This document shows, in pieces, positions 327 to 56,374 of a DNA stretch of 64,000 bases. The notes below the pieces were generated by a model that was given only the letters and a program-made list of their open reading frames with translations, was not told the origin of the DNA and searched no databases. A program made the translations under genes and the position numbers. The stretch is from Glaucostegus cemiculus (taxonomy: Eukaryota), in the NCBI GenBank assembly GCA_976551045.1, contig CDPCPM010000151.1:9610001-9674000 (forward strand), in the 5' to 3' direction. How positions within the stretch are numbered: the stretch's first letter is position 1; each line of letters opens with the position of its first letter.

Positions 327-525
327 CTCACCTGGACTCGCCTATCACCTGAACTCACCTATCACCTGCCTGTGTGTGCTCCTCCCCCTCCCCCCACCTC
401 TTATTCTGGCTTCTGCCCTCTTCCTTTCCAGTCCTGTTGAAGGGTCTTGAGAGGAAATGTTGACTGTTTATTTTCCTCAGTGGATGCTGCCTGATCTGCT
501 GAGTTCCTCCGGCACTTTTTGTGTT
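327..525 (+). mobile_element. Penelope-derived short element with degenerate hammerhead motif
   Basis: cagtc-ctgttga-agggtcttgagag-gaaa-tgtt-gactg at 429-466 followed by gatgctgcctgatctgctgagttcctcc; homologous to 56181-56374. Confidence 0.75.
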
Positions 526-2500
526 AATGTTTGATTCTGAAGATTAATGAGATGGTTGTGGGGAGCGGGTGTGAGAAGAAGGTGCAATTGTTCCTTGCAT
601 CATTGGTTTAGAATTCCTTCTGAATGTTTGCCAGCTATCCACCTGACACTAGCTTTGCACTGGGTCATGGTCAGCTACGATACCCACCTAAGTCAAATAG
701 CCATTTAGTATTCACAGCTGAAGCTCACACATGGTGGAATCAGTCCTGAGTCATTATAATACAATTGGTGTACAGAGAAGACAAGGCAAAGTGCATTGCA
801 TAGATAATTAAAAACTGAGTTCCTTCATTCCATGAAACAAAATGACGAAATAATGTTATTGATAAAATTTTTCTGGTGATAAGTGTGCTGTGGGGTTCTA
901 TACTTGTGATTATTTGGGGCGCTGAGGTGCGGTGTTCAATAGAGAGTGGGTCAGCTGTCAACCAGAAAGTGGGGTGGGGCTACTTGAAATCAGGATATCC
1001 ATATATGTGAATTGGTGCCAGGATCCCATCGTGAAGACTCACAATCAACAGCTTGTAAACACAGCATAAGTGCAGTGTGGCATCATTTCATCCAGCATAA
1101 AACCAAAGGAATTACATGAACTTCTTGTTTTGCACAAAGCCACATTACCATGTTCTAAATGATAAACAAATGCAGGGGCACTAGTCAGGACACAATGCAT
1201 TTCCTTCCTTAACAAAATTTAGTACACAAAGACCAATTTTACCCACAGCAATAGTTTATTTCCAGTCAATTATTTTAAACTAAATTCATATTCTCAAATT
1301 GTGAGATTTAAGTTTAAGTTCAATTCAATTACAAGCCCATTAACAAAGCCACTACACCACCATAGCCTACATTTTACTAGGTGTTGGTTACAATGTTGCT
1401 GAAATTGGGTCAAGATTGAGTAACCATGTTTGTCTAGAATTTCTCTCGTAATTTAAATATTTTTTAGGTGTGGTTCAAATAAAAGTTTAAGAGGAAGTAG
1501 ATACGACGGTTTCAGTGCGGATAGGATGTTTATGGGGCTGCTTCCTAAATACAATCTCCAAAAATAAACTTGCATTTTGTGTCATTAATTGGTCTCAGCA
1601 CCTTTACCTTGGCAAAATTCTCCAACAGAAATTGCCAGCTAGCTGCAGATTTCACTACAATGACAGCACATCCTTGACAAATGTTAGTTTGGCAGGAAAT
1701 GCCTTAGCTACATTGATGCAATGCATGTAAATTTCATTCACATTTGTATATTTCATTAACATTCAGCCTACAAAAAAGTAAATCACTCCCAACAAAGAAA
1801 AATGCGCTTAAGCACTCTGCTGAGTATTCTTTTTAGTTCCCATATAGGTTAATAAACCACAATGTCATTTACTGATATGCTTAAAGGAAGGAAATCTGTT
1901 TGCTCCAAATTGTTCATCAAAATCTGTATATTGTTCAGAACATTTCAATGTAGGATTGGTTTTGAGCAAAATAAGCAGTTGATTTAATTCCTTTGGTTTC
2001 AAACCAGATGACCCTACACTGCCCTGTACAGCTTTTTGCTTGTCGTCCAGTTTATAAGGTGCTGATTTTGAGTCTTTGCCATGGGATCACACCACCAATT
2101 CACACATGTAGGTACCTTGATTTCAAATAACCTGCCCCCTACTGGCTAACAGCTGAAAGGCAGGGTCCCATTCTCCATTTGATACCACAAAAGGTAAGGA
2201 TGTTTTTCAAAGAAAGATAATGAATGCTGTGCAATCACCTTCTGTTGGCAGAGCTTCTGACGGCCCTGCCCATATGACAGTTTTACTCTGTGAGGGCTGG
2301 GGGAGCAGGGGTTGGGGGAGCAGGGATGGGGAAGTCTGCCGTTATTTACAGTGCCTCAGTGAGAGGGTTAAGCAGGTATTGTATAGCTAGTTCAGGTTCT
2401 AATCAGCGCTGATCTCGTTCCACAAAGATATGTGTTTTTTCCTAAAATGCTACTGCCAATGTTGTCCTAGGCTGGTGGTGTGAGAATTTCTACCGTGCAT

Positions 2501-2708
2501 GAAAAACACTATGATGCTGGAGGAACTTAGCAGGCCAGGCAGCTTCCGTGGAGAAAAGCAGTCGGTCAATGTTTTGGGTCAGGACAGGTCAGGACCCAAA
2601 ACGTTGACTGCCTGCTTTCCTCCACGGATGCTGCCTGGCCTTCTGAGTTCCTCCAGTGTCATCGTGTTTTTCGTCTAGATTCCAGCATCTACAGTCCTTT
2701 GTTTCTCT
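2501..2708. mobile_element. Inverted (hairpin) unit of Penelope-tail element
   Basis: 80-bp arms 2501-2580 and 2593-2672 are reverse complements (about 10 mismatches by hand count), plus tail tccagcatctacagtc; degenerate TSD tctaccgtgcatg / tctattatgcatg. Confidence 0.85.
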
Positions 2709-3281
2709 ATCTATTATGCATGGTCAGCGAGAGGAGATGTCCACCTCCCCCCAGTCCTGCATCGTCCAACCACTTCAATCCCTCCTCAGGTTGCAGGAAT
2801 AATGATAACCCAGCTTCCATTCTTTTCACCAATGATCTGTGCAGGCTACACTTTGGCTCAGATTTTTTGTGGGGGGAAAATCATGGCAAATCTGCCAGTG
2901 CTTAAGAAATGGAAGCAGGAGGAGGCTTTTCAGCCCTTCATGCCTGCTCATGATTGATCTCTTGCTTCGGTAACACTTTCCTGCACTAACCCTTGATTCC
3001 TTTGGTATCTACAAATCCTTTGGTCTCTGAATGAATAGTGACTGAGCTTCCAGAGTCCTCTTGGGTGGTGAAACCCAAAGACTTGCCCACCCTTTACGAG
3101 AAGAAACTGCTTATCAACTTTAATCTGAATGTTGAACTTTTATTTTGAAACAACAGTTCCTGTTTTTAGACCCCCAAGCCACGGGAAGCATTATTGCCAT
3201 AGTTATCCCATAAAGCCCCTTGCCATTGCACCATGTTACCAAAGGCAAATTCCTGCTTCCTGTGCATATGTTTGGGATCAG

Positions 3282-3880
3282 AGAGTCATAGAATCATACA
3301 GCACAGAAACAGGCCCTTTGGTCCAACTCATCTATACCGACCAAGATGTCTATCCAAGCTAGTCCCATTTGTTTACATTTGGTCCATATCCCTCTAAACC
3401 TCTTCTATCTATGTACCTGTCTAAATGTCTTTTAAACATTGTACCTACTTCTACCCCTTCCTTTGACAGCTTGTTCCACATACCCACCACCCTCTGTATG
3501 AAAATGTTTCCCCTTCATGTCCTTTTTAAATCTTTTCCCTCTCACCTTAAATCTATGTTCTCTAGTTTTAAACTCCCCTACCCTGGGAATAAGATTTTGA
3601 CTAGCCACCTTATCTATGGCCCTCATGATTTTATAACCTCCATTGGGTTATTATTGGCCTCTTACATTCTGGGGAAAACAACCCCAGCCTATCCAGCCTC
3701 TCCTTATAACCCAAACCCTCCAGTCATGGTAACATCCTCCTGAATCTTTTCTGCCACTTTTCAGCTTAGTGACATCTTCCTATATCAGAACTGCACCCAA
3801 TGCTCCAAGTGCGGTCTCACAGATGGCTTGCACAGTTGTAACATGATGTCCCAACTCCTCTACTCAATGCCCTGACTAAT
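3282..3880 (-). mobile_element. CR1-type LINE 3' fragment
   Basis: Minus ORF 3432-3626 resembles the CR1 ORF2 C-terminus (NLIPRVGEFKTREHRFKVRGKRFK); typical elasmobranch CR1 3' tail. Confidence 0.85.
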
Positions 3881-4487
3881 GAACTTAAACCATTGCAAAA
3901 GTCATGGAGTTGCAGGCAGCTGCTCATGACTGTTTGCCTGACTGTGATCTTAACATTAGACTGCGTGCAATCCAAAAAGGGTCAGATACTGCAAAGTTCC
4001 ACATAGCATCAGATCCCACAAATGGAGATTCTAAATGGAGACAAGAATTATAGAGCAGCCTATGCCAATTGAGGGAAGGAAAGCCATTGTTGAAGCAGCT
4101 GTAGATGGGGTTGGTGTGTTTATAACACTGACAAAGGTACATTGCTTCCATTGACTTCAACTGAGGATAATGACTCTCAGGACTGAGATAGATGGTTGTT
4201 TTTCAGTTGTTTAGATGCACCTGAGCATTTTTAATTGTTTTTATCTGTTTTCAAAATATTTTTAAGTTGTTGACCATTTGGAGAGTTTTAATAGTTTTGT
4301 TACTGAATGCCAGAATGAATAAGTGAATGTCAAACCTTCATTGAATTTTGACACTTGCAGTAGTTTTGGCTTTGTTAGGGAGCATGGTTTAGCCTTGCTT
4401 TTTTTTCAGTAGTTGTAGCATATTCTGGCACACCCAGTTGCTGGAATTGTATGGAGGTGAAGTCTTGCTCATGCATAGGGTTTCACT

Positions 4488-4541: not shown

Positions 4542-4741
4542 GTAAGTGCAACTTTCTTTCTAGGTCAGCAGTCAGCTGAAAAGGAGTCCAGAGTCATTCT
4601 GTATCCCACTGAAGTGTGGATTTCCCAACTTGATAAGAAGAAGTGGCCACCCTACACGTGGGATGTGGATGTTGCTGGGAAGGGCAGAATTCATTGCCCA
4701 TCCCCCAAGTACCCTTAGGAACCACGGTGGTGAGTTTAAAC

Positions 4742-5490
4742 AAAATCTGATAATTCTGGAAATCCTCTGCCGGTCAGGCCACGTCTGTGGGAGTAGAATC
4801 AATATTTCAGGTTGGAAACCCTTCATCAGAACTGAAAAGGAGACAAAAGAAGTCTTTAAATCTGCAGGGAGGGTCAGGGTGGGGGTGTAAGTCTCTGATA
4901 GGGTAATCCCTGTGTGACATGGCGATAAACAGTAAGCAAGGTCATCTGGTCAATGAGTGAATGGGAGTAGTTAGAGAGTGAGAACATAAACAAAAGAATG
5001 TAGGAGATGTGAAATGCAGAGCAGGAAGACATGCCTGGCAGGTCAGGCTGAGATTGTCTCCAGTTCCAGAGTGAAGGAAGAAGCAAAAAACAAACAGGCT
5101 GAGCTAATATCACAGATGGATGGCTGATACAGACTGAGAATTCAAGTTACCTGAAGTTGTAGAATTCAATATTGAGTCTAGAAGGCTGCAACGTGACCAG
5201 GTTGAACCTGAGATGTTGTTCCTCAAGCTTGCATTGGGCCTCGTTGCAACTTGCAGGAGATCACAGACGAGAGGTCAGTATGGGAATAGGATGGAGAATT
5301 AAAGTGGTAGGCAATGGGAAGCTAAGATCGCCCCTAGAGACTGAACGTAAGTGTTCCTCAATGCGGTCACCCAATCTATATTTGGTTTCTCCCATGTAGA
5401 GGAGACCACACTGTCGACACTATTTGCAAGTCACTAGATTGGATGAATCTGGAAAGACTGGGTCTCTGGATGGTGAGCAGAGAAGAGGTT
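4742..5490 (-). mobile_element. Penelope-like retroelement 3' fragment: GIY-YIG endonuclease C-terminus, 3' UTR, hammerhead motif
   Basis: Minus-strand translation 5419-5147: CRQCGLLYMGETKYRLGDRIEEHLRSV ... (frameshifted) PIAYHFNSPSYSHTDL ... KLEEQHLRFNLVTLQPSRLNIEFYNFR*; CTGATGA (4829-4823) and GAAA (4808-4805) downstream. Confidence 0.9.
4796..4834 (-). ncRNA. Minimal hammerhead ribozyme motif (best-preserved core in the window)
   Basis: Minus strand reads cagtt-CTGATGA-agggtttccaacct-GAAA-tatt-gattc: both core boxes intact, helix II gggtt/aacct, palindromic ATAT in place of helix III, weak helix I. Activity unknown. Confidence 0.6.
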
Positions 5491-8451
5491 ATTTTGTTTA
5501 TTTTCTCACCCTCCAACTGCTCCCATTCACTCATTGACCAGATAACCTTGTTTACAGCTTATCCCCATGGTCACCCTGGAATTGATGGGCTGAAGAGCCT
5601 GTTTCCCTGCTGTATGACTCTGTGACTCCATATGATTACGTGAGAATGACTATGTTACCATGTTGCCTGATTAGTCTGTGGAACAATGTTCCCAATTTGG
5701 GGACTGCACTCTACATATTGGTGAGGAGGAGTTTGACTTGGCTGTTTGTGGCTTTGGAATCTGCTGGAGAACCTGGCCAGATTCTTACTGCGTTAATTTA
5801 GTGCAACTGGATGACCTCCTCAGAATGTTCCAGAGTCCCAGATCTGGAGATATCTCACCTTTCCTTCATTACATCGGGGTCAAAATTCTGGATCACCTTA
5901 CCCAACACTATGGGTGTGCACCTTCACCAACAGGTCCAAAGGGCAGCTCATTAAGGGGCAGTAGGGACGGGCAATAAATGCTGGCATCACCAGCCATGCT
6001 CTGATTCTGAAAACAATGATTCAAGATTTACTTTATTGTCATTTCTCTGAGTACTTACATACACAAAAAAATGAAATACTGTTTCTCGCCAGCTCATATC
6101 AGTACAACAGAAGGAACAGTGATAAGTATCTAAAATAGTCTAGAAAATCTCTAAAACAAAACTAAAAACATAACAGCACCACATATTCATGTCTGTTAAA
6201 GTGTGTTTATGTATTAATAAGTGCTTATACAGTTTGAGATGAAGTTCAACTTATCAGGTAACTAACTATCAAACTGCTTCTGTATTGATGTGAATATATA
6301 CGTGTGTGTGGAAGGAGAGCTTGTCGGTGGAAGTGGAAGGGGACATAAACAAATTGATTGAACAAATAATGAGAGCTGTTAAGAATCAATCACATTGCTG
6401 GGAGTAAGGATACTAAACCAGATGGGTTTTTACAGGAGTTCTGTTACCTCTTAATTCCTCTACTATTCTTAATACTTGACAACTTTACCAAAACACAAAA
6501 TGGTTCAGCTTCTCATGCACTTGCTAGGCAATTATGCATATTGAGACCACAGGCCCAATGAGAGTCTATGGTGCAATTTTAACTCACTAGTTGGACACGG
6601 ATTGTCAATTGTGGCTTACAGTTAACATACTGAACTGGTAAGAGCAGACCAATTAGGATTCTTAGCACAAGGAGGAGGAAAAGTAAAGGTTTGTAGACAG
6701 GATTTGTGGGTATTGCAGGTGACTAATTATTACTCATTCACGCATATCATTACTCACCGCCTGGAAGCACTCTGGTGGTTGAGACTGCAAGTTAATAGTG
6801 GTTGATGCAAAAAGGAAGGGCAACATTTACACAGAGCCATATCAAAGCAGAACTCCCTGCTTCTGTTCATGTGGTGCTCTTTCATATTTATCATACATTA
6901 AATGGGCAGATGTACTATCTAACCTAAGGGCCATGCCTGGGATGGTGCAGGGCTCTCCCAGTACTCCAGCCTTGATTGTTTGCTTGTCTCCATAATGGGC
7001 TTCAATCCATAAACAGAGATAAGAATCAATGAAAAAGGATTAGCAAATCAAACAATGTGATGAGCATGTTCATGTATTCAGTTCCCTTTAGTGAAATTGG
7101 GAAAGGATTGTAATGCTGAAACTAACCCCAATATTGCAGTAATAAAGCTACTTAACAATCAGGAACAACTTTACTACTGTAATATTAACAAAACATTGTG
7201 AAACATCTAAAACAGTCTTTGCTGGATCCTGTTTCTCTTGAGAAGGAATTGCATGGGGAAGGGCAGGAATGGGTATGGGGATGGGAACATTTAAAAAGAT
7301 CCCAACAAGGGGATCCAAGCATTGCTTTCCCATTCCTGCTGGCCAATTTAGGCTAAAATATTTCTACAAGGTGGAATTTAACATTATCGAATTGCAAGTA
7401 AGGGAGCTTTGGCTCTCTTGTATTGTAGTTTTAAATTAATCATTAAATAATATATAGAAATGAAATAGCTGGAGGTGGCAGGTTATTGAAAGTTTGGGTC
7501 TTTAACTCTATACCCCTATGTAAAGCACCAGTGAAGTACTTAAGTGTAACCTTCATTGTAGAGAAGAGAACTCAGTGACAAATTTGCAAGCAACAGGAGC
7601 TTTCAAATGGTTTTAATGAGGGGAGAGTCAACTTTCGGGATCTCAGAGGCAACTCTGTGGATTTTTTTAAAAAGTCAGACGGAAGGATGAGGAGAATTTT
7701 TTATGTGGAGAGTGGTCATGGGAAGTGAGACTAACTGAACATTACATGTTTGGGAACTAGAGCGTCACTTCCTGTGAATTGTGTGGGAGAAAGGAGGAAG
7801 GGATAGTTCAGGATTCTGAAGAGCCCTCGGTGATTATGCTCGCATACGTGGAGACTAACATGTTTAATTTGAGATGCTTAGTATTATTTAAAGGCCAATA
7901 CGGTAACAGAAAGTCTGGTAAGTGCCAGTTTGGCTAACGTGATTCTCATGACTGTGGGTTGGGTGGAACTGTTGGAGGAGAGAGTCACTCTTTTTGACAG
8001 TAAACACTTGATGAAAAGTCATGCGATTGAGAAAGAGGTGAGGCATTTGAGGGTGATGGGTTGGGTTGGGGATGGGAGGGTGGGAAACAGTCACTGGTGC
8101 CAGATTGGATATGTAGGAGGAAGATGGACCTTAGTACATCTCATTGCTTCCCAGAGCACTGCTTCTTAATAAGACTTCCATTTCAAAATCTGTGGCTCAA
8201 CAAACTGCTTATTGTCTAACCTTCATGCTGTGGTCTGTTTGAGTGGTTCAATGGGTTCTCCTTATACAGAATATAGTGTACCAGTCAATGATGTGCCAAA
8301 AGTTCAAAATAATACACCTTCAGCTACAATGGAGTTCATTACTTGATTTTTACAATAGTGTAACACTTCCAATAAGATAACATCACTATAGAAATGGGAA
8401 GCTGCAGAGGCTGGTACAATTACAACATTTAAAAGACACTTGGACAGATAC

Positions 8452-9990: not shown

Positions 9991-11158
9991 CATTCATTCT
10001 TTTGTCTCTTTTTTTTAACTGAATCAACACTGTTTTCTTTCCTATAACTGGTAACACTTGGGTGTGATAGTGAATGTTGACACCCGCTATAGTAAGGTTC
10101 TACCTGGGTATAATCCCCATTACATTTAAATAATTTCAGGAATGGCCTTCTTTTGATTTCAGCCTGTACACTACTGTAAACAGCACTGAGAAGTTAAGCT
10201 TAGGACTGGTGGTCAATGCTTTCTTTGAGTCAAAATCTTAACATTTTGTACTTGTTTAGCATTTGTAACATCAAAAAAGACTTTCCAGGGGTTCACAAGA
10301 ATTTTAACAGAAAAAATATTAAACCTGGCCATATAAAGAGATCTTCAGACAGCTGAGCCAAAACTCAGGCAAAGTGATATGTTTTAATGAGCATCTTATT
10401 GGAGGAGGGGGAACTAGAAAGAGATGGAGAGGTTTAGAAATGGCAATCAAGAGGTAAAGGGCAAAACACTGAAGGTATGGTAACTAACAAAGGGCTGAAG
10501 GAATAAGGAGTGTACAGGATGTCAGAGATCTCAGGGGTTAATAGATAGGAGAAGGTTACAGAGAGAGGCAGGTGTGAGGCTGTAGAAGTAGGAGCCAGGG
10601 TGCTGGGGGCCTGCTCAAGAGAGGGTGTGTACTTGGAAGTCTAACCTCAACAGTCATGGCCCCAAATGTTCTGGCCAGGTTTGACTGGGTGGATTTGGAT
10701 TTCTACGTTAATAAACTTGGGAATTCCTTTTCATACTGAAACCATGATTCATGAATGATTCATGAATTCACAGGCTTTTTTAACAGGGTTATTTCCACAG
10801 CAACTATTATAATTATCAGAAAGTCTTAAAAACAGCTAACTGTGTGATTTAGTGTAATGTCTGTTGCAGCATCCAGAGGATGCACAAAAAAATCCCAGAA
10901 TAGAAACATGCCAAGTGACAAAATAATCAGGTTTTGCCACTATCAGTTCAGGATAAATGTTCCCTCGGACTCAAGTATGGTTACCTGTCCTTCTTCAAAT
11001 TATTGCATTCAACTTTTGCATCAGTTCAAGTGGTAACCATAGGTTCTGTTTAAGGTCTCAATCAAAGACAGTCTCTCACTTCAGAATCTGTGGGCTAGCT
11101 GAATACCGTTTGATGTAAACTCAGAGATCAAGATACACAATTACCCAATACCTGATGA

Positions 11159-11430
11159 CCAGTCCCAATGAAGGGTCTCAACCCGAAACATCGACTGTTT
11201 GTTTCCCTCCGCAGATGCTGCTTGACCGGCTGAGTTTTGCTGGAGGAACTCAGTGAGTCAGGCAGCATCAATGGAGGGAAATGGTCAGTCGACACATCAA
11301 GTCAAGATCCTTCATCTGGACTCGACCCAAAATGTTGACTGTCCATTTCCCTTCATAGATGCTGCCTGACTCACTAAGTTCCTCCAGCGCCTTTGCATGT
11401 TGTTCCAGAATTCCAGCATCTGCGGTGTCT
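11159..11430. mobile_element. Three-armed (+/-/+) cluster of Penelope-tail hammerhead elements
   Basis: cagtc-ccaatga-agggtctcaaccc-gaaa-catc-gactg at 11160-11197; inverted arm 11238-11322; third arm to 11430 ending ttccagcatctgcgg. Confidence 0.8.
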
Positions 11431-11431
11431 A

Positions 11432-12210
11432 GTGTTTCATTGTGAGGTAATGTTCTTTGGAAAGACTGGGAAAGCTAGAAGATACACAATGAATGGTAAG
11501 ATCTCAGGAAGTAGTGAGGAACTGAGGAACCTTGGTGTACAAGTCCTGAAGGTGGCAACACGGGTAGATAAGGTGGTTATGAAAGCATAAAAATACTTAT
11601 CAGCTCATAAGATATAGGAGGAAGGTAAATGGTACAACCATGTAAAAGATTAATTAGGCCACAGCTGGAGTATTGTGTTCCAGTTCTGGTCACCACACTT
11701 TAGGAAGGATCTGATTGCAATGGAGGATTCACCAGGATGTTGCAAGGGATAGAACAGTTCATTCAGGAGAAAAGAATGGATGGGCTGGGTTTGATTTTCT
11801 TGTGATGAAGAAGGATGAGTGGGTAGCTGATGAATACTGAGGAAGATTTTCTTCATGCAGTGAGTGACTGGAATCTGGAGAGGTGTTGGAGGCAGAGACT
11901 CTTAAACCTCTAGTTAAAGACAACTCTAATAAAGAGAAAAGTTTCTCACTGTCTACCCTGTCTGTGCCCCTCATAAATGTTGTGTTCATCAGGTACCCAC
12001 TCATCTTTCTTCATCACAAGAGAAACAAACCCAGCCCATCCACTCTTTTCTCCTAATTGAATTGACCCTCACAAGATTTATAAAGTATCTGGATGAGCAC
12101 CTGAATCGCCAAGGCTTAGATGGCCATGGATCAAATGCTTCTGGGTAGGTACTTGATGGCTGGCATGGACATGATGGGCTGAAGGGCATTTCCTGTGCAG
12201 TATGACTATA
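11432..12210 (+). mobile_element. Degenerate CR1 3' fragment with internal fold-back duplication
   Basis: RPQLEYCVxFWSPHFRKD-like coding remnant near 11655-11710; 11761-11837 is inverted at about 11983-12058. Confidence 0.75.
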
Positions 12211-13469: not shown

Positions 13470-13870
13470 CAAAAACACTATAGATGCAGGAAATCATAAA
13501 TAGAAACAGAAAATGCTGGGACACTCAGCAGTTCCGGCAGTATCTGTGAAGAGAAAAAAATGAGCTAATTTTTCAGGACAATGATGGAACTGGAACAGTA
13601 AGGACAAGGATGTGTTTTAGTTCTCAAAGAGAGAACAGAGTGGATGTCTGTGATGGAGTGGGGACCACGGTTGTCCAGGTAACTCAATTTCTTTGGCGCT
13701 GTCTGGTTCATCACAGTTGATCTGTCTGAAGATGCATAAATAGAAGGAGATGAATGGGGGCAGTTAGAAAGAGGAGAAAATAGCAAACAATATATTGGAG
13801 CTGTGAGACACAGAACAGAGTGGCTGCTGGAAACCTGACAGAGAGAGTGCTGAACATTCCCAGCATTCTT
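13470..13870 (-). mobile_element. Penelope 3' UTR/tail remnant
   Basis: agatgcaggaaatc...aaatgctgggacactcagca tail; ggggcagttagaaagaggagaaaatagcaaac resembles 4963-4995 of the Penelope fragment. Confidence 0.55.
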
Positions 13871-14129
13871 GATTTAATGACAGACAGAGCAAATCCCCTC
13901 GCTCAGTAGTGTTTATTGGTTGAAACTATAGCCAGAACCAATATTTCAGGGTGATTGCTAAGAGTGAAATAAATAAGTTCACAAATAATATACTTTAAAA
14001 TAATTAAAAACAGTAACCAAAGTGTCACAGGGTCCTAGAGCAGAAGCAGGTCATCCATCAACCATCAAGCACCCATCTACACTCATCCTACAATAATCCC
14101 ATTTCATTCTGCCCAAATTCCCCACCACC

Positions 14130-14634
14130 ATCTCCACTTCCACCTCTGTGCCTATCCCTTCGACCAGGAGACTTCACCCTATACTGTGGATGCCTTCCCC
14201 CATCTCCATTACTGCTGGACACTTCCCTCTGGCCAACTACCCTATCTAGATCAATTCATTGAGAACTGCTGTCATGACAGTGACTATCTTGACATTTTCA
14301 TTCCCCTCTCACACTCTAACCTATTCCCTTCTAAACTTGCAGCACTCCATCTGCTAAAACCACCCCTGTAAATCATCATCAAACCCACTGACAAAGGGTG
14401 GTGCTGTTGATATCTGGTGAACTGACCTCTATCTCATAGAGGTCATACATCAGTTCTCAGATGCCTCCTCGTACCTCCTTCTAGATCATGATCCCCATGA
14501 TCCCAACATTGAACATCAGGCCATGGTCACCCAGATAAGTCATGGACCTCATTTTCTAGGGAAAGCTTCCTTTTACACCTTCCAGCCTTATATTGTCCCA
14601 GTCCTGCACAGCCCGCTTCTACCTCCTGCCCAAG
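14130..14634 (+). mobile_element. Penelope-like ORF fragment (region preceding RT core)
   Basis: Translates SGQLPYLDQFIENC...SHSNLFPSKLAALH...IIIKPTDKG/GAV...TDLYL...SDASSYLLLDHDP...CTARFYLLPK, i.e. the PLE DKG and ARFYLLPKIHK motifs. Confidence 0.85.
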
Positions 14635-14635
14635 C

Positions 14636-15065: not shown

Positions 15066-15067
15066 AT

Positions 15068-15254
15068 GCTGGCTTTAGACTGTTGTGAGACAGGTTAATT
15101 TTGCTCTACAGATGATGTGTTGTTGCAATAATAACAACACTACAGTACAAGAGGAACTGCAGGTTCAGACATTTGGTATATGTGCTTGGCTGAGAAACCA
15201 GTTGTGCAAAGCTACCATCTGTGGGATTATGAATGAATGCCCTTAAATCAGAAT
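15068..15254 (+). pseudogene. Degenerate 28S rRNA fragment (3' region including sarcin-ricin loop)
   Basis: gctggctttagactgttgtgagacaggttaatttt...agtacaagaggaactgcaggttcagacatttggt...gctaccatctgtgggattatgaatgaatgcc...tcagaat is colinear with eukaryotic 28S (AGTACGAGAGGAACC loop at 15144-15158), with CpG-type decay. Confidence 0.92.
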
Positions 15255-15282
15255 AATTCCTAAATGATGTCCCAGTTAAATT

Positions 15283-15420
15283 CACAGTTTTGAGAGAGTT
15301 TTTGACTTAAAATATTAGTTCTGTTTCTCCTCTCACAGATTCAGCCTGACCTGCTGAATACTTGCAGCATTTTCTGTTTTTATTTTAGATTTCCAGGATC
15401 TGCAGTTTTTTGATTTTATC
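15283..15420 (+). mobile_element. Penelope tail with highly decayed hammerhead motif
   Basis: cagtt-ttgagagagtttttgactt-aaaa-tatt-agttctg...cctgacctgctgaatacttgcagcattttctg...tttccaggatctgcag. Confidence 0.7.
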
Positions 15421-19217: not shown

Positions 19218-19824
19218 GTAAGCATTCACTACCCTTTGTGATTGGCCACCGTAAACTCAGCTACCAGACAGACTCCATGCTCCTGGATTTTCCTGGAATG
19301 CAAGGATTATTCTGAATTATTTGCTCTGCTATCTATCTCCTCGTCTCTTCTTGTTTCTCCCATCCTGGATTCAACAGGTGGGAGGAGCTTATGAACATTT
19401 TACACAAAGATTAGCATCAGTGGTTCAGCTAACTTGCTTTTTATTTCCTTCCCCAATAAGTCACACATCTCTGCAAGTTCCTCCATTTACTGAACTGAAA
19501 ACAGCTGTTGTTTTGTCACCCTTGGCTACTGGCCAAGTTCCTCTCCCAAACCCCTCATGCTGTCTGTGGGTGGGGTATAATATTCCTTTGATTCTAGCCT
19601 CTTAAATGCTCTTTACTACCTTTCTGGAATAATGATGCCTCTTTAACCTGAATCCTACACCCTAGTGTTCCAACACCAGTTCTTCTACTATGTTACTCCA
19701 TATTTGGCCATGCTCCTAATAATTTGTTCTTTGGCTCATTATCTATTTTGCTTTATAGTCCAGATGAAGGGTCTCACCCCCCTAATATGCAAGTTATTCT
19801 TGATATTAGAGGGTGTGAAATTCA

Positions 19825-35994: not shown

Positions 35995-38900
35995 GAGAAT
36001 AGAACAACACAGCACAATACAGGCCCTTTGGCCCACCATGTTGTGCTGACCTTTAAACCACACCTAAGCCTATCTAACCCCTTCCTCCCACATATACCCC
36101 TATTTTAAATTCCTCCATATGCTTATCTAACAATCCCTTGAACTTGACCAATGTACCTGCCTCCACCACTATCCCAGGCAGCATATTCCATGCACCTACC
36201 ACTCTCTGGGTAAAAACCTCCCTCTGATATCTCCCTTGAACTTCCCACCCATTACTTTAAAGCCATGCCCTCTTGTATTGAGCATTGGTGCCCTGGGAAA
36301 GACACATTAGCTGTCTACTCTATCTAGTCCTCCTAATATCTTATATACCTCTATCATATCTCCCCTCATCCTCCTTCTCTCCAAAGAGTAAAGCCCGAGC
36401 TCCCTTGGTCTCTCCTCATAATCCATACACTCCAAACCACGCAGCATCCTGGTAAATCTCCTCTGCACCCTTTCCAACACTTCCACATCCTTCCTAGAAT
36501 GAGGCGACCAGAACTGGACACAGTACTCCAAGTGTGGACTAACTAGAGTTTTGTAGAGCTGCATCATTACCTCGTGGCTCTTAAACTCAATCCCACGATT
36601 TATGAAAGCTAACATCCCATAAGCTTTCTTAACTACCCTATCCACCTGTGAAGCAACTCTTAGTGATCTGTGGATATGAACCCCCAGATCCCTCTGCTCC
36701 TCTACACTGCCCAGAATCCTACCATTAACCTTGTACTCCACCTTGGAGTTTGTCCTTCCAAAGTGTATCACCTCACACTTCTCCGGATTGAACTCCATCT
36801 GCCACTTGTCTGCCCAGCTCTGCATCCTATCAATATCCCTCTGCAACCTTTGACAGTCCTCCACACTATCCACACCACCACCAACCTTTGTGTCATCTGC
36901 AAACTTGTCAACCCACCCTTCTACCCCCTCATCCAAGTCATTAATAGATATCACGAAAAGCAGAGGTCTCAAAACTGATCCTTGTGGGACACCACTAGTC
37001 ACAGCCCTCCAATCCAAATGCACTCCCTCCACCACAACCCTCTGCTTTCTACAGGCATGCCAATTCTGAATCCACATGGCCAAGCCTCCCTGGATCCCAT
37101 GCCCTCTGACCTTCTGAAGAAGCCTACCATGTGGAACCTTGTCAAATGCCTTACTAAAATCCACGTAGACCACATCTACTGCACTACCCTCGTCAATCTG
37201 CCTGGTCACTGCCTCAGAGAGTCCTATCAGGCTTGTGAGACATGATCTTCCCTTCACAAAGCCATGCTGGCTGTTGCTAATCAGTACATGATTCTCTAAA
37301 TGCTCATAGATTCTATCTCTAAGAATCATTTCTAACAGTTTGCCCACCACAGACGTAAGGATCACTGGTCTGTAATTCCCTGGACTATCCCTACTACCTT
37401 TTTTAAATAAGGGGACAACATTTGCCACCCTCCAATCCTCTGGCATCATTCCTGTGGACAATGAGGACTCAAAGATCCTAGCCAATGGTTCAGCAATCTC
37501 CTCCCTCACCTGGCAGAGCAGCCTGGGGAATATTCCGTCAGGCCCCAGGGAATTAACTGTCCTAATATTTTCTAACAGCTCCAATATATCCTCTGTCTTG
37601 ATATCTACATGCTCCAGAACATTAACCTTATCAACACTGTCCTCAGCATCATCCAGGCACCTCACCTTGATGAATACTGAAGAGAAATATTCATTGAGAA
37701 CCTCACCACTTCCACAGCTTCCATGCACATCTTCCCACCTTTGTCTCTAACTGGTCCTACCCTTACTCTCGTCATCCTTCTGCTCTTCACATAAGTGAAA
37801 AAAGCTTTGGGATTTTCCTTAACCCTACTCGCCAAGGCCTTTTCATGTCCCCTTCTTTTTCTCCTCAGCCCCTTCTTAAGTTCCTTCCTTGCCACCCTAT
37901 ATTCCTCATGAGCCCTATCTGATCCTTGCTGCCTACACCCTATGTGTGTTGCCTTCTTCCTCCTAACTTGTTGTTCCACCTCTCTTGTTACCCATGGTTC
38001 CTTCACCCTGCCATTCTTTCTCTGCCTCACCAGGACAAATTCATCCCTAACATCCTGCAAGAGATTCTTGAACAATGACCACATCCCCATAGTACATTTC
38101 CCTTCAAAAACATCCCAATTTACTCTTGCAAGTTCTAGCCTTATAGCTTCATAATTTGCCCTTCCCCAATTAAACATCTTCCTGTCCTCTCTGCTCCTAT
38201 TCTTTTCCATGACAATGCTAAAGATTAGGGAGCGGTGGTCACTGTCCCCCAAATGCTCACCCCCCGAGAGATCTGTCACCTGACCCGGTTCATTACCTAA
38301 TACTAGATCTAATATGGCATTCGCTCTAGTTGGCCTGTCAACATACTGTAACAGGAATCCATCCTAGACACACTTAACAAGCTGTGCCCTGTCTAAATCT
38401 TTGGCATTAAGCAGGTGCCAATCAATTTTTGGGAAGTTGAAGTCTCCCATGATACAACACTGTTATTCTTGCACCTTTCCAAAATCTGCCTCCCAATCTG
38501 CTCCTCAGTATCTCTGCTGCTACCTGGAGGCCTATAGAATACTCCTAGTAGAGTAACTGCTCCTTTCTTGTTCCTAACTTTCACCCATATTGACTCTAGA
38601 GAGGATCCTTCTATATTATCCACCCTTTCTGCAGCTGTAATAGTATCCCTGACCAGTAACACCACCCATCCCCCTCTCCCCCAATCATCCCTTTTAAAAC
38701 ACTGAAATCCAGGAATATTCACTGTCCATTCCTGCCCTAGTGACAGCCAAGTCTTTGCAAGAGCCACAATATCATAGTCCCATATACTTATCTCAGCTCT
38801 CAGCTCATCAGCCTTATTCCTGATACTTCTTGCATTTAAGTAAATACACTTTAGCCTATCCCCCCTTTCTACTTTTATACCCTATCCTCTGCTTCTCTTT

Positions 38901-39415
38901 CCTCAAAGCCTCTCTACATGTTAGATCTGACTTGTCCCCATCCACTTCTTCCTCGAACCTACCCCTCTGGTTCCCATCCCCCCTCACAAACTAGTTTAAA
39001 CCCTAGCAAACCTGCCTGCAAGGATATTGGCCCCCCTCAGGTTCGGGTGTAACCTGTCCTCTCTGTACAGGTCCCACCTTCCCCAGGAGAGATCCTAATG
39101 ATCCAAAAATTTAAAACCTTCCCTCCAGCACCAACTCCTCAGCTACACATTCATCTGCCATCTCCTCCTATTCTTATCTTCACTATCACGTGGCACTGGC
39201 AACAATCCTGACATTTCTATCCTTGAGGTCCTGTTCTTTAGCCTTCTGCCTAGCTCCCTAAACTCACTTTTCAGAACCTCACCCCTCTTCCTACCTATGT
39301 CGTTGGTACCAATATGTACCATGACTTCTGGCTGTTCTCCCTCCCGCTCAAGAATGCTGTGGACCCAATCAGAGACATCCCGGACCCTGGCACCTGGGAG
39401 GCAACATACCATCTG
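35995..39415 (-). mobile_element. Long 5'-truncated CR1 LINE (ORF1 esterase part, APE endonuclease, RT, 3' tail)
   Basis: ORF 39143-39412 (CLPGARVRDV...VHIGTND, SGNH esterase of CR1 ORF1), 38393-38767 (GVFYRPP), 37662-38279 (SDH), 36307-37728 (RT, KFADD); frameshifted. Confidence 0.96.
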
Positions 39416-39573
39416 GGATTCATGTATTGGATTTAGTCTGATACATATGATGGACAGTTCAACTGCCCACAGATAAGAACACGTGACTGGTATTTGATTA
39501 CTTTCACTTTTGAGTGTACAGGTTAAGTAAGCTGGATGATAACTACAATGAAGTGTCTCTTGTTGTCCTAAAG

Positions 39574-39718
39574 CAGAAGCAGAAACTGAAGCCGGGAAAG
39601 TCCTTCAGTGGCGTTCGACAGGAGAGCTACGATAAAAAAGGAGGAAACTTGGAAAATAAGATGTGGAGAAGTACAAGCAAACTAAGCCGCAGAAAAGAGA
39701 AAGGAGACTCCTTGGGAG
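39574..39718 (+). CDS. RGS14: RGS14 linker exon (QKQKLKPGKSFSGVRQ...KEKGDSLG)
   Basis: KLKPGKS matches RGS14; donor G|gtgagg, phase 0-1. The exact acceptor is ambiguous among tandem in-frame NAGs (39574/39577/39580/39583). Confidence 0.88.
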
Positions 39719-42118: not shown

Positions 42119-45100
42119 AACTAGAGGAGACAGGCCAACTAGAGGAGAGGCCAACTAGAGGAGAGGCCATACTGGACCTTGTACTAGGTAATGAAACCTA
42201 TCAGGTTTCAGATCTCTTGGTGGGAGAGCATTTTAGAGATAGTGACCATAACTCCTTGACCCTTACCATTGCATTGGAGAGGGATAGGAGCAGACGATAT
42301 GGGAAAGTATTTAATTGGGGAGGGGGAATTATGATGCTATTAGACAGGAACTTGGGAGTATAAATTGGGAACAGGTGTTCTGGGGAAGTGCACAGCAGAA
42401 ATGGGGAGGTTATTTAGGGAGTACTTGTGCAGGCTTCTGGATAGGTTTGTCCCATTAAGGCAAGGTAAGGATGGTAGACTGAAGGAACCCATGGTTGACA
42501 AGAAATGCAGAATATCTTGTCAAGAGGAAGAAAGAAGCTTGCCTAAGATTTAGAAAGCATGGTTCAGACAGAGCTCTGGAGAGTTACAAGGTAGCCAGGA
42601 AGGAGCTTAAGAATGGTCTTAGGAGAGCTAGAAGGGGGCATGAAAAGGCCTTGGTGAGTAGGATCAAGGAAAACTCCAAGGCGTTCTACACATACGTGAA
42701 GAATAGGAGGATGACTAGAGTGAGGGTAGGACTGATCAGGGATAAAAGAGGAATCATGTGCCTGGAGTTGGAAGAGGTAGGGGAGGTCCTTAATGAATAC
42801 TTTGCTTCAGTATTCACCAGTGAGAGAGACTTTGACATTTGTGAAGATGGCGTACCACATGCTGATATGCTAGGGCATGTCAACATGAGGAAAGAGGATG
42901 TGCTGGAACTTCTGAAAAACATTAGGATAGATAAATCACTGGGGCCTGATGGGATATATCGGAAGCAAGGGAAGAAATTGCTGCACTTTTAGTGATGATC
43001 TTTGCATCCTCGCTGGTGACAGGAGTAGTGCCAGATGATTGGAGGCTGGCAAATTTTGTTCCTTTGTTTAAGGAAGAAAGTAGGGATAACCCTAGGATTT
43101 ACAGGCCAGTGAGTCTTACTTGAATGGTGGGTAAGTTACCGGAGAAGATTCTTATAGACAGGATTTATGGTCATCTGGAGAAGCATAGGCTGGTTAGGGA
43201 CAGTCAGCATAGCTTTGTGAGAGGCAGGTCGTGCCTCACGAGCCTAACTGAATTCTTTGAGGATGTGACAAAGCACATTGATAAAGGTAGAGCAGTAGAT
43301 GTGGTGTACATGGATTTTAGTAAGGCATTTGATATGGTTCTCCATTCAGAAAGTCAGGAGGCATGGGATACAGGGAAACTTGGCTGTGTGGATTCAGAAT
43401 TGGCTCATCCATAGAAAACAGAGGGTGGTGATAGATGGAACACATTCTGCCTGGAGGTCGGTGACCAGCTGTGTTCCACAGGGATCTGTTCTGGGACCCC
43501 TTCTCTTTGTGATTTTTATAAATGACTTTGTAAAAGCAAAGGAGGAGGCATACAAGGAAGCAAAAAATTAGTGGGAAGATAGAGGATTGGGAAGCTTTTA
43601 AAAACTTACAAAAGGCAACTAAGAAGGTCATTAGGAAGGAAAAGATGAACTATGAAAGGAAGCAAGTAAGTAATATCAAAGAGGATACTAAAAGCTTTTT
43701 CAAGTATATAAAGAGTGAAAGACAGGCAAGAGTAGATATAGGACCGATAGAAAATGATGCTGGAGAAATTGTAATGGGAGACAAGGAGATGTTAGAGGAA
43801 CTGAATGAATATTTTACATCAGTCTTCACTGAGGAAGACATCAGCAGTATACCGGACACTCGAGGTTGTCAGGGAAGAGAAGTGTGTGCAGTCACAGTTA
43901 CAACAGAGAAGGTACTCAGGAAGCTGAATGGTCTAAGGGTAGATAAATCTCCTGGACCAGATGGAATGCCCCTCGTGTTCTGAAGGAAGTAGCTGTAGCG
44001 ATTGCAGAGGCTTCAGTAATGATCTTTCAAGAATCAATAAATGCTGGCATGGTTCCAGAGGACTGGAAAATTGCAAATGCCACTCCACTATTTAAGAAGA
44101 GTGCAAGGCAGCAAAAAGGAAATTATAGAGCTGTTAGCCTGACATCTGTGGGTGGGAAGTTGTTGGAGTCGATTCTCAAGGATGAGGTTACGGAGTACCT
44201 GGAAGCACATGACAAGACAAGCCAAACTCAGCATGGTTTCCTTAAAGGAAGATCCTGCCTGACAAACCTATTGTAATTTTTTGAGGAAATTACAAGCAGG
44301 CAAGACAAAGGAGATGCAGTGTATATTGTGTATTTGGATTTTCAGAAGGCCTTTGACAAGGTGCCGCACATGAGGTTGCTAAACAAGATAAGAGCCCATG
44401 AAATTACAGGAAAGTTATGAACATGGAAAGAGCATTGGCTGATTGGCAGGAAACAGAGAGTGGGAATAAAGGGATCCCATTCTGGTTGGTTGCCAGTTAC
44501 CAGAGGTGTTCCGCAGGGGTCCATGTTGTGGCCGCTTCTTTTTATGTTGCATAACAATGATTTGGATAATGGAATAAGTGGCTTTGTGGCTAAGTTTGCT
44601 GATGATACAAAGATAGATGGAGGGGCAGGTAGAGTTGAGGATACAGAGAGTCTGCAGGGAGACTTGGAAAGACTAGGAGAATAGGCAAAGAAGTGGCAAA
44701 TGAAATAAAGTGTTGGAAAGTGTATGTTCATGCACTTTGGTAGAAGAAATAAATGAGCAGACTCTTATTTGAATGGGGAGAAACTTCAAAATTCAGGGAT
44801 GCAAAGGGACTTGGGCGTCCTTGTGCAGGACACCCTAAAAGTTAACCTCCAGGCTGAGTTGGTGGTGAAGGAGGCAAATGCAATGTTGGCATTAATTTCT
44901 AGAGGAATAGTATATGAGTGCAGGGATGTACTGTTGAGGCTCTATAACGCATTGGTAAGATCTCGCTTGGAGTACTGTGTGCAGTTTTGGGCTCCTTATT
45001 TAAGAAAGGACATGCTGATGTTGGAGAGGGTTCAGAGAAGATTCACTAGAATGATTCCAGGAATGAGAGGGTTAACACATGAGGAACATTTGATGGCTCT

Positions 45101-46845
45101 TGAGCTGTACTCCTTGGAGTTCAGAAGATTGAGGGGGGAACTCATAGAAACATGTTAAAAGGCCTGGACAGAGTAGATGTGGCAAAGTTGTTTCCCATGG
45201 TAGAGGAGTCTAGTACAAGAGGGCACAACTTCAGGATTGAAGGGCGCCCATTCAGAACAGAGATATGGAAAAATTTCTTTAGCCAGAGAATGGTGAATCT
45301 ATGGAATTTGTTGCCACGGGTGACTGTGGAGGCAAAGTCATTGGGTGTATTTAAGGCAGAGATTGATAGGTATCTCAGTAGCCAGGGCATCAAAGGTTAC
45401 GGTGAAAAGGTGGGGGAGTGGAGTAAATGGGAGAATGGATCAGCTCATGATAGAATGGTGGAACAGACTCAATGGGCTGAATGGCCGACTTCTGCTCCTT
45501 TGCCTTATGGATGAGGATGTGCAAGGGTGGGTTAGTAAGTTTGCTGATGACACGAAGGTTGGTGGTGTTGTGGATAGTGTAGCAGTTTGCTGTGGGTTAC
45601 AATGGGACATTGATAGGATGCAGAGCTGGGCTGAGAAGTGGCAGATGGAGTTCAACCTGGAAAAGTATGAAGTGATTAATTTTGGAAGATCGAATTTGAA
45701 GGCAGAATACAAGGTTAATGGCAGGACTCTTAGCAGTGTGGAGGACAGAGGGATCATGCGATCCACATCCCTAGATCCCTCTGTCGTGGTTCTGAGTGCT
45801 GGCCCTTGATTCTGTCCCATTGATGGTGCCTTGTTGTGCAGCACATGGATTCCATGCGCTACTAATTGCATAATGACACACACCTGAGCCCCATCAGGAG
45901 ACTAGCATAAGAACCTTGGTTTCACTAGCACTAGTCACCAGAGTATTGGTCAACCTTTGGGTATATGTTGTCTTCTGGCTGCTTAAAGCTGTCACCTATA
46001 GAGCAGTCCTGGTTTCACTGTTCCTCTTAGGATATCCAGTTTCTGTGTTGGGGGACTCTACCTCGGAGCCCCGAGGCAAGATTCCTTCTGGTTGCTGCCT
46101 GTGTTTGCTTCTGAGGCAGTATCCTGACTCCAGCCTTGTACCAGTTCACTGCATTTGGGTTCTCTGTGAGCTTGCTCTTTGCTTGACATTGTGACACCCT
46201 CAAGGTTGCCATGCAGGTTATTAAGAAGGTGTGTGGTGTCTTGGCCTTCATTAGTCAGGGTAGTGGGTTCAAAAGCCATGATGCAATGTTGCAGCTCTCT
46301 ACAACTCTGGTTAGACCACATTTGGAGTATTGTGTTCAGTTCTGGTCTCCTGATTATAGGAAGGATGTGGAAGCTTTAGAGATGGTACAGAGAAGATTTA
46401 CCAGGATGCTGCCTGGATTGGAGAGCACATTCTATGAGGATAGGTTGAGTGAGCTAGGGTGCTTCTCCTCTTCAAAGGAGGATGAAAGGTGACTTGATAG
46501 AGATGTACAAGATGATAAAAGGCATAGACTGAGTGACCAGTCAGAGAATTTTTCCCAGGGTGAAAATGGCTAATGTGAAGGGGCATAATTTTCAGGTGAT
46601 TAGAGGAAGTTATAGGGGTAATGTCAGAGGTAAATTGTTTTTTTTTTCCAGAGTGGTGGGTGCATGGACTGCACTGCCAGCAGAAGTTGGAGGCAGATAC
46701 ATTAAGGGCATTTAAGAGGCTCTTAGATTTTTTAAAAAAACAGATGGCTATGTGGGAGGGAAGGGTTAGATATATCTTGGAGAAGGCTAAGATGTTGGTA
46801 CAACGTGGGCTGAAGGGCTTGTACTGTGCTCCAATGTTCTATAAT
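42119..46845 (+). mobile_element. Nested CR1 complex: outer CR1 (about 42150-43530 and 45508-46845) containing a second CR1 (about 43531-45507) and a solo LTR
   Basis: Outer RT is split at ...PLLFVIFIND / DEDVQGWVSKFADD; the inner copy has its own RT remnants and 3' tail ending ctgctcctttgccttatg. Confidence 0.92.
45782..46196 (+). mobile_element. Solo LTR (Gypsy-like), 415 bp, 5-bp TSD
   Basis: TGTC...GACA termini; TSD CCCTC at 45777-45781 and 46197-46201; splits the CR1 coding sequence HIPRSL/KVAMQV. Confidence 0.9.
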
Positions 46846-48199: not shown

Positions 48200-48770
48200 C
48201 ATAGAATCAGAGGGATGCAGTACAGAAACAAGCCCTTCAGCTCACTGAATCTGCACTGACCATCACTGTCCACTGGTGCCAATTCTACATTAATCCCAAG
48301 CAACACACACAAAATGCTGGAGGAACTCAATGGGTCAGACAGCATCTATGGAGGGAAATGAGCAGCTGATGTTTCAGGCCAAGACTCTTCCCAAAATGTT
48401 GACTGTTCATTTCCTTCCATAGTTGTTGCCTGAACTGTTGAATTCCTCCAGCATTGTGCATGTGTTGCTCCAGATTTCCAGCATCTGCAGTCTGTGTCTA
48501 CATTAATCCCATTTTGTTATTCTTCCCACATCATCAGTTCCTCCCAAGGTTCAACCACTCACCTACACACTAGGGGCAATTCACAGTGGCCAATTCGCCT
48601 ACCAACCCACATATCTTTGGAACATGAGAGGAACCTGGAGCATCCTGGAGAAACTCCTGTGATCACAGGGATAATGTACCAAGTCCACACAGACGGCACC
48701 TGAGGTCAGGACTGAACCTGGGTCTCTGGTGTTGTAAGGCAACAGTGGCAGCAGCACTGTGCTGCCTTGT
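48200..48770 (-). mobile_element. V-domain SINE interrupted by an inverted Penelope-tail unit
   Basis: SINE halves 48200-48298 and 48497-48770, itself within an older CR1 (about 47330-48200, 48770-48910). Confidence 0.8.
48299..48496. mobile_element. Inverted Penelope-tail unit with perfect 15-bp TSD
   Basis: TCTACATTAATCCCA at 48284-48298 and 48497-48511; the arms agcaacacacacaaaatgctggagg... and ...cctccagcattgtgcatgtgttgct are reverse complements. Confidence 0.9.
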
Positions 48771-50571: not shown

Positions 50572-50624
50572 GTAAGTTGGAATATTATATATGCTGTACA
50601 GACCACATGGTTTAATATAAAACT

Positions 50625-55004: not shown

Positions 55005-55131
55005 ATTGGAGCTTGTTCCAGCAAATCGAAAACTTTGGGTGACGGCAAAACCTACCAAAACAGTATGTGAGGCTTTGCAACCATTTCTGATGAAATATCA
55101 CTTAAATGTCAAGGATTTGGAGGCAAAAATT
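55005..55131 (+). CDS. RGS14: RGS14 exon, RBD2 (LELVPANRKLWVTAKPTKTVCEALQPFLMKYHLNVKDLEAKI)
   Basis: ccctttcag| ... ATT|gtacgt, 127 nt, phase 2-0; AKPTK..EALQP motif. Confidence 0.95.
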
Positions 55132-55912
55132 GTACGTATTAACAGAAGCAAAAATACTTTCCATTTATACATAACCTCCTATTTCCTCAAGATTTCCAAA
55201 AGCACTTTAGCGTTAGTTAATGATTTTTGATGCACAGTCACTGATGGCCATTTTCCAAAGTCCAAATATCCACAAACATCTGTAAGGTAATTGAACCATT
55301 AGAGATGTTGGTTAAGGGATATGAATTGGTCAAGGGGAGAACTGTTCTTGGACTTCCTCAATCAGGAATAGTTTTAATGTAATCCACTATTCAGCCATTC
55401 ACCTTTGCAAACCCCACCTCGCAGGTTAACTCAACCAGAAGGGGTCTAGCATGTACCTTCTTTGAAAACATGATTATTTACTGGTGAAAACATCAAACTG
55501 GAGAAAAAACTTGGGCACATCCAGTCTGGCCTTGTGTATCATTATACATTCACTCCCCAACCAAGCTAAAGCCAAGCAGTTTCTGGAAGTTATAAAATGA
55601 ACTAAAACTCTGATCAATTTTGTGCAAAAAAAAAGTAAGGAATCTCCTATTTAAAACTATCCCATGATTTGCCACCTCAGACTATGATATTGGGAACAAG
55701 TCCAGGAGATTGTCCTGATAATGTCAGTATTTGCTCTTCAGTTGAGAAGTGATCTCTATGCAAGTCAGAAACGAGTTCAGTCTCTATATGTTTATACTTG
55801 GATCATGTTATCAAATCAAAGTTGGGCGTGAAATGTCTTTGGCATGGAGGGCGGTGAAGCAGATTTAACAGGTAGCAATTGAATATAATTTCTTTTAATC
55901 TATGTAAAATAG

Positions 55913-55994
55913 AGTGGAGAGTCCCAGCCTCTGAAAATGCATAGCACCGTGTCCTGCCTGGATAATCAGCGGGTGATCCTTGACAAGATTAAGG
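55913..55994 (+). CDS. RGS14: RGS14 exon, end of RBD2 (SGESQPLKMHSTVSCLDNQRVILDKIK)
   Basis: aaatag| ... G|gtatgt, 82 nt, phase 0-1; GE.QPL...VS...QR..LD pattern. Confidence 0.93.
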
Positions 55995-56180
55995 GTATGT
56001 ATCTTGTGCACATCTTTCTTGTTTAATATTTTTTCTGCTGGACTGCTCCAAGCAACACCTCAGGGATTACCTCTATTGCTCAAGATTCCTGGCAACCCTA
56101 AAGAGGAGTGAATAGATGAATAGCTGGAGTGGGAAGTGCTGAAATGTTAATACAGATGTCTTAGGTATACTGTAAAGTCC

Positions 56181-56374
56181 CGCGTGTGCTCCTCCCCCTC
56201 CCCTCACCTTCTTATTCTGGCTTCTGCCATCCTCCTTTCCAGTCCTGATGAAGGGACTCGGCCCAAAACATCAACTGTTTATTTCCCTCCATGGATGCTG
56301 CTTGACCTACTGAGTTTCTCCAGTACTTTTTGTGTATTGCTTCAGATTCCAGCATCTGCAGAACTTTTTGTGTC
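56181..56374 (+). mobile_element. Penelope-derived short element with hammerhead motif and TSD
   Basis: cagtc-CTGATGA-agggactcggccc-aaaa-catc-aactg at 56240-56277; TSD actgtaaagtcc 56169-56180 / actgtgaggtcc 56375-56386. Confidence 0.85.

Follow-up and report, generated by a model that had tools for sequence, protein, structure and literature searches.

The question raised by this locus is what the short, hammerhead-bearing repeats scattered in and around the gene RGS14 of the ray Glaucostegus cemiculus are, and whether they matter to the gene. The DNA analysed (the window) is a stretch of 64,000 nucleotides (nt), positions 9,610,001 to 9,674,000 of contig CDPCPM010000151.1. The initial annotation of the window had described eight copies of a hammerhead ribozyme motif and proposed that they were a separate non-autonomous family, any intact sense-oriented intronic copy of which could cut host pre-mRNA. 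With high confidence, we regard the repeats as 5'-truncated ends of a Penelope-like retrotransposon that bears an endonuclease and is present in high copy, and whose pseudo-long terminal repeat (pseudo-LTR) carries a minimal type I hammerhead motif. The copies in the window would then be decayed leftovers of this element, likely inert for RGS14.

All eight copies were present at their annotated positions and strands, with 19757-19790 being a 3'-truncated fragment and 15283-15322 heavily decayed. The 38-nt consensus derived from them was found to be real, as it had 68 exact matches (29 forward, 39 reverse) in the 2.85 Gb of genome searched and none for the reversed-pattern control. A pattern fixing the two core boxes gave 1128 matches, and one with both core boxes intact and a free helix II gave 3575, each with no control match. 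Hammerhead positions, and the initiator and splice-site consensus sequences used below, follow general usage. The motif has CUGANGA and GAAA boxes, an NUH triplet and a palindrome replacing helix III, with subfamily 4 (see below) departing at A9, and the initial annotation was right in calling it a minimal type I hammerhead with an intact ancestor, in an elasmobranch host and in RGS14. Its helix II (GGGTC/GACCC) is impossible with the 2-nt loop that would be left; folding gives 4 bp with a CUCG loop. Many of the lesions had been described as of the CpG type, and this was borne out in 65 young copies, in which G12 was kept in 50 and G16.2 in 43, compared with 57-65 at non-CpG positions from +0 on. 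These two bases, both in CpG sites, decay first. An Rfam scan of the window returned no match to a hammerhead family at E<=5, and its matches to microRNA families were rejected as inverted pairs folding back.

The sequence upstream of the motif leads into a coding element. Two of 20 exact-match loci (L001, L013) continued upstream into a broken frame of the GIY-YIG endonuclease type. A search with the peptide of that frame gave 53,087 first-look candidates, of which 150 were scored and 30 loci fetched. The hammerhead motif lay downstream of the endonuclease in 25 of these 30 loci (23 at 297-355 nt and 2 at ~610 nt), accepting up to 12 mismatches where 60 shuffles were never better than 17, and in all 12 of the longer endonuclease loci. 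Within the window, the copy at 4796-4834 follows a broken endonuclease remnant (5153-5440, minus strand) that ends 319 nt upstream of it on the same strand. The link to Penelope elements made in the initial annotation is upheld.

Fragments of the reverse transcriptase (RT) were also sought (9,668 candidates, 150 scored). One natural frame of 523 amino acids (L108) runs from the RT through a CX4CX2C linker to the endonuclease, and the motif follows it after ~380 nt. The cysteine linker in natural copies is of the CNRTKCHTC type, which fits CX2-5CxxC. Natural fragments matched the Pfam families RVT_1 (E 7.6e-7) and GIY-YIG (E 8.9e-4), and the RT is 56% to a bamboo-shark RT protein. At the other end of the open reading frame (ORF), the tail runs into the ORF start in the natural copy L118, to which L206 and L209 align over ~3.4 kb at 74-76%, and the hammerhead was 107-127 nt upstream of the ORF start in 6 of 25 loci picked by that start. 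The unit of ~3.4 kb can thus be laid out as hammerhead, ~100-nt tail into the ORF start, RT, cysteine-rich linker, GIY-YIG, ~340-nt pyrimidine-rich spacer, hammerhead and tail. Judged from these sequences, it is an endonuclease-bearing (EN+) Penelope-like element, with a single ORF from RT to C-terminal GIY-YIG, a partial-tandem pseudo-LTR into the ORF start, a tail and inverted copies.

The ~340-nt spacer (L013 1157-1503; window 5150-4832, minus strand; L403) is a candidate intron like that of Drosophila Penelope, for which a promoter and an intron have been described (PMC2377424); many EN+ Penelope-like elements, though not all, have a spliceosomal intron in the pseudo-LTR. A donor-like G|GTAA is present at the ORF stop codon, and a pyrimidine tract with CAG lies at the hammerhead edge in three subfamilies. 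None of six junction-pattern matches was a spliced copy, an absence that decides nothing since such elements retain introns. Separately, five composite copies (L205, L208, L212, L215 and L216) have 350-600 nt of the ORF start fused to the 5' edge of a second hammerhead. The ORF position of the fusion differs among them, which is consistent with template jumps.

The copies fall into at least four subfamilies. Subfamily 1 has the consensus of the initial annotation, and subfamily 2 gave 605 matches (control 2) with a pattern that fixed its 3' arm only. Subfamily 3 is younger, with CUGAAGA, a 3-bp helix I and 3338 exact matches to its 40-nt tail, and was endonuclease-linked in 3 of 9 loci. Subfamily 4, which includes loci L218-L247, has CUGAUGC (A9C), its own flanks and only 3 bp of helix I. 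Subfamilies 3 and 4 have lost the outer pairs of helix I. The helix I pair that adjoins the cut site is C-G in 23/30 loci of subfamily 1, with C-A, through CpG decay, in 6 more, and U-A in 23/30 loci of subfamily 2, one clear compensatory change from C-G to U-A. Across 20 hand-picked rows from four subfamilies, 81% of cells were paired (C-G 8, U-A 7), a weak control as the rows are related. The base at position 9 of the genome matches was A in 3575, C in 699 and G or T together in 191; the A9C core variant did not stop amplification.

A CAGGC variant of helix I (11/30) was considered as a further transposon subfamily and rejected, because all eight tested copies share downstream flanks and represent one insertion duplicated with its region. 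This old insertion with a helix I mismatch is found at L054, L056, L058, L059, L061, L063, L064 and L066 (contigs C1, C3 and C4), with 75-92% of the flanks shared. L009 and L010, listed with it, have a G protein-coupled receptor-like frame nearby, a label that is our own reading of the peptide.

Several observations weigh against the assignment to a hammerhead-bearing Penelope-like element. The motif folds with an unremarkable energy (z -1.07, not above shuffles), and the covariation comes down essentially to a single change, seen between related subfamilies in a hand-picked alignment. The Pfam scores are just under the curated cut-offs (RVT_1 29.5 vs 29.6, GIY-YIG 19.9 vs 22.6), and L013, the best endonuclease query, had no GIY-YIG match in Pfam. 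No intact ORF was found, the longest frame among 150 scored RT matches being 595 amino acids, and none of 20 loci had two pseudo-LTRs around a whole body, the young subfamily being outside that search. A Neptune-like label comes from the linker motif only, and this is insufficient for assignment to that clade because Nematis also has a zinc-finger-like linker (Craig et al. 2021, PMC8557442).

The initial annotation had taken the repeats as a distinct SINE- or retrozyme-like family (SINE, short interspersed element), that is, a unit of ~100-140 nt that would depend on the Penelope protein in trans for its mobility. Short copies do predominate: among 150 incidental copies, the start lies between -10 and +29 of the hammerhead in 97 (59 of them at -10 to +9), an excess that is inflated because the search model was built from subfamily 1 and divergent subfamilies are present. 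A profile census of 264 kb gave 54 matches, to which the window contributed 15, 100 kb of its flank 25 and 100 kb elsewhere 14, and crude extrapolation from the last 14 suggests ~4 x 10^5 element ends genome-wide. A 2026 preprint also traces animal retrozymes back to pseudo-LTRs and includes one chondrichthyan among the animals reported to have them (bioRxiv 10.64898/2026.07.22.740005).

However, when 90 copies of the young subfamily 3 were chosen by the tail without regard to the rest (the first 90 in a listing of 100, from 3338 in all), 40 began beyond -100, counted from the A of CAG, and the others at many positions: 15 at -100 to -11, 2 at -10 to -4, 8 at -3 to +4, 15 at +5 to +15, 3 at +16 to +28, 2 at +29 and 5 at +37 or +38. 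A SINE has a fixed 5' end and its own RNA polymerase III head, whereas these 5' ends run from +38 to beyond -200, and others reach kilobases upstream, where the sequence is the element's own spacer and endonuclease. Short and ORF-bearing copies have the same sequence in common. No head-to-tail tandem unit was found in ~1.5 Mb of sampled loci; the 249 cores included 4 close same-strand pairs, none of them a repeat unit. A separate family is very improbable, and the copies are better described as the Penelope-like element's own truncated ends.

The same ends bear on the possibility that the hammerhead cuts the element RNA and that the cut sets the 5' end of the integrating copies. In its favour, subfamilies 1-3 all retain the core boxes and three pairs of helix I, and a few copies start downstream of the cut (the five young copies at or beyond +37, and 15 of the 150 incidental copies at +40 to +49). 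A cut product would begin at +32, yet none of the young copies starts there and 85/90 span the cut site, and were therefore copied from RNA that was uncut there; only 2 of the 150 incidental copies start at +30 to +39. The spread of the A9C subfamily and the insertion of catalytic mutants of the lizard element (PMC11167929) also stand against it. Cut-defined 5' ends are thus largely refuted for integrated copies, and we give this explanation very little credence.

The density of 5' ends is enriched ~7-fold in the 5' half of the hammerhead (23 in 19 nt vs 17 in 97 nt upstream), a conservative figure, since internal deletions account for some of the upstream 'ends'. The excess in the young subfamily is broad (-3 to +15), and the idea of one sharp 5' end was dropped for that reason. 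The 3' ends of the 90 copies are bimodal, with 30 short and 46 long, ~33 nt apart, a spacing that matches the 30-40 bp Penelope tail (PMC8557442, PMC11167929). An inverted partner was present in 14/90, and target duplications of at least 8 nt in 5 of 25 picked copies (control pairs, 14 of 600). At the putative transcript start, where a cap-derived G was looked for, the base preceding AGT was C in 12, G in 9, A in 6 and T in none of the copies without upstream homology; in an overlapping set excluding C, it was G in 9, A in 7 and T in none (16 of 30 loci). It is purine-biased and not G-specific, and fold-back microhomology can also supply a G.

The same cycle as in published Penelope elements could have made these copies. 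By analogy with the lizard element, the element protein would nick DNA and begin reverse transcription at one of two alternative sites downstream of the hammerhead, which could account for the two 3' ends. Copying would mostly stop early, leaving pieces of 100-500 nt, and fold-back or template jumps would give head-to-head pairs. The ancestral hammerhead may have been a weak ribozyme needing a dimer partner (through the palindromic ACGU) or the element protein, with most integrated RNAs uncut. After insertion, CpG decay would remove G12 and G16.2 first.

We tentatively raise a further idea, which is possible but rather doubtful: that the hammerhead lies at the very 5' end of the main transcript and serves chiefly as a structural landmark, less for cutting. 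All four subfamilies retain YCAG immediately ahead of the core, even where helix I pairing is lost, and this sequence could fit an initiator or, by comparison with Drosophila Penelope, a splice acceptor. If this is true, reverse transcription starting ~60-100 nt downstream and copied to the 5' end would give a 'strong-stop'-like product of 100-140 nt, which would explain the hundreds of thousands of SINE-sized copies, the hammerhead-centred fold-back inversions and the spread of A9C.

In the window, three iterative rounds of nhmmer ended with 15 related matches, including a three-piece cluster (11151-11410) and head-to-head pairs at 2502-2680, 33436-33618 and 48293-48475 in the final round. 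The element pieces and the host gene are as follows.

326-529, plus: truncated element end, subfamily 1; hammerhead 429-466 damaged at A6, in helix II and at C15.2 (82% to L118, a natural long copy)
2502-2590, minus: inverted member of a head-to-head pair from young subfamily 3, starting inside helix II (nhmmer)
2583-2702, plus: direct half of the pair with 2502-2590, without a CUGANGA box (nhmmer)
4736-4850, minus: element end of subfamily 2 type; hammerhead 4796-4834 lies antisense to RGS14 and is alone among the window copies in satisfying the strict descriptor
5153-5440, minus: broken GIY-YIG endonuclease remnant (tblastn 42% identity, E 9e-17; translation)
11159-11245, plus: short end beginning at the hammerhead 5' edge, first core box broken; annotated hammerhead 11160-11197
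11238-11326, minus: inverted end, U4 and G12 region broken; annotated hammerhead 11286-11322
11318-11440, plus: direct end, head-to-head with 11238-11326, beginning in helix II (nhmmer)
13476-13598, minus: decayed element end, absent from the initial annotation (nhmmer)
14084-14634, plus: decayed Penelope-like RT remnant (tblastn 38-40%, E 1e-22), its link to any particular end not established
15283-15409, plus: old decayed element end, both core boxes broken
19047-62727, plus: RGS14 coding exons, from RGS domain to GoLoco motif (host gene)
19748-19790, plus: hammerhead 5' half only, U4 broken, without tail (nhmmer E=0.001, first round only)
31929-31994, plus: tail-only fragment (nhmmer)
33436-33537, minus: inverted member of a head-to-head pair, with CUGAUGC (A9C) and a shortened helix II; hammerhead 33503-33536 (nhmmer)
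33510-33637, plus: direct half of the pair with 33436-33537, without the first core box (nhmmer)
48291-48400, minus: inverted half of a head-to-head pair, beginning near helix II (nhmmer)
48365-48493, plus: direct half of the pair with 48291-48400 (nhmmer)
56179-56378, plus: element end, subfamily 1, long tail; hammerhead 56240-56277 with G12 and G16.2 lost

A decayed fragment of 28S ribosomal RNA (15128-15268, plus strand; Rfam LSU, 73 bits) precedes the element end at 15283 by 15 nt, in the same orientation, and is possibly the result of a template jump from element RNA to ribosomal RNA or a chance neighbour. Other repeats occupy 24202-24975, 36310-39604 (minus) and 42121-46838 (plus), with RT frames of the long interspersed element type (36310-37746 matches Pfam RVT_1, E 5e-30) and, in 39146-39604, an esterase-like frame. 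The SINE-like families D5, D8 and D13 are also present and presumably resemble shark HE1/V-SINE.

The host gene is on the plus strand and is 96% to a sawfish RGS14-like protein, with its best homologues in rays. RGS12 was slightly favoured on one exon and was dropped, also given that 96% match. The initial annotation had placed the repeats in RGS14 introns and flank; the gene stands, and whether copies before 19047 are intronic hinges on a weakly placed first exon, either ~10 kb upstream of the window (E 0.02) or at 7836-7916 (E 0.002).

It had also been suggested that intact sense copies in introns could cut host pre-mRNA, and such copies could be selected against or co-opted. Intact motifs do persist elsewhere, in 11/90 young subfamily-3 copies and 3/24 endonuclease-linked subfamily-1 copies, and Xenopus retrozymes have been reported as depleted from introns (preprint 10.64898/2026.07.22.740005). 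The strict descriptor found one copy in the window, which is antisense (4796-4834), one in a 200 kb census and none in 20 shuffled windows. One antisense copy is, however, no statistic. None of the 10 sense copies in the window has an intact core, sense copies are not fewer than antisense ones (10 vs 6), and single minimal hammerheads showed no cleavage in vitro (PMC4209133). We therefore consider cutting of host pre-mRNA highly unlikely, and for this window the suggestion fails. The lesions indicate that the window copies likely do not cut RGS14 RNA, and in the sequence we see no sign of an effect on the gene.

Minimal hammerheads (min-HHR) in the pseudo-LTRs of metazoan Penelope-like elements, with weak cleavage as dimers and none as monomers, were described by Cervera and De la Pena (2014, PMC4209133). 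The ray motif resembles them in its type I order, CUGANGA plus one extra base, G10.1-C11.1, GAAA followed by a palindromic CGU and H, short helix I and U-rich flanks, and in the many solo copies from truncated elements and opposite-strand pairs. It differs in that no shark, ray or chimaera is in the supplement table or alignment of that paper (supplementary file 1 being outside the search), and in the CUGAUGC of one ray subfamily, where all alignment rows covered have A9. Like the Neptune clade (PMC8557442), the ray element has a single RT-linker-GIY-YIG frame with a CX4CX2C linker fitting CX2-5CxxC, partial tandems, an inverted 5'-truncated copy and a 30-40 bp tail.

Poseidon of Anolis (PAc; Frangieh et al. 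2024, PMC11167929) is also similar, with a hammerhead at the pseudo-LTR/ORF junction, a tail in or beside the ORF start and copies made from uncut RNA. PAc belongs to another clade, with no cysteine linker described for Poseidon in that paper, and its biochemistry has been shown, whereas the ray element is known from sequence. The PAc hammerhead cut only with the element protein present and was dispensable for insertion in vitro, internal RT starts define the tail, and insertion proceeds from uncut RNA. The animal non-LTR retrozymes of the preprint are likewise hammerhead-bearing, pseudo-LTR-related, non-coding pieces, but are defined as tandem repeats of at least 2 units, unlike the 249 ray cores (10.64898/2026.07.22.740005). 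Head-to-head palindromes and an initiator-like motif have been described in rotifer elements (PMC3846280), and two reviews served as background (PMC6155905, PMC6765202). Our literature search found no paper devoted to shark or ray Penelope hammerheads; Repbase and Dfam were outside the comparison, and absence from print is not established.

This class of hammerhead has been known since 2014, and the ray repeats extend the list to a batoid genome with very high copy number. The ~7-fold enrichment of 5' ends in the hammerhead 5' half and the spread of an A9C subfamily are minor new points. With thousands of datable copies in four subfamilies, the integrated RNA was mostly uncut and the A9C variant was still amplified, and both bear on whether cleavage is a requirement for Penelope hammerheads, a question that is still open. 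If the hammerhead is indeed a landmark at the 5' end of the transcript, the ray genome would be a large natural data set on what Penelope hammerheads are for.

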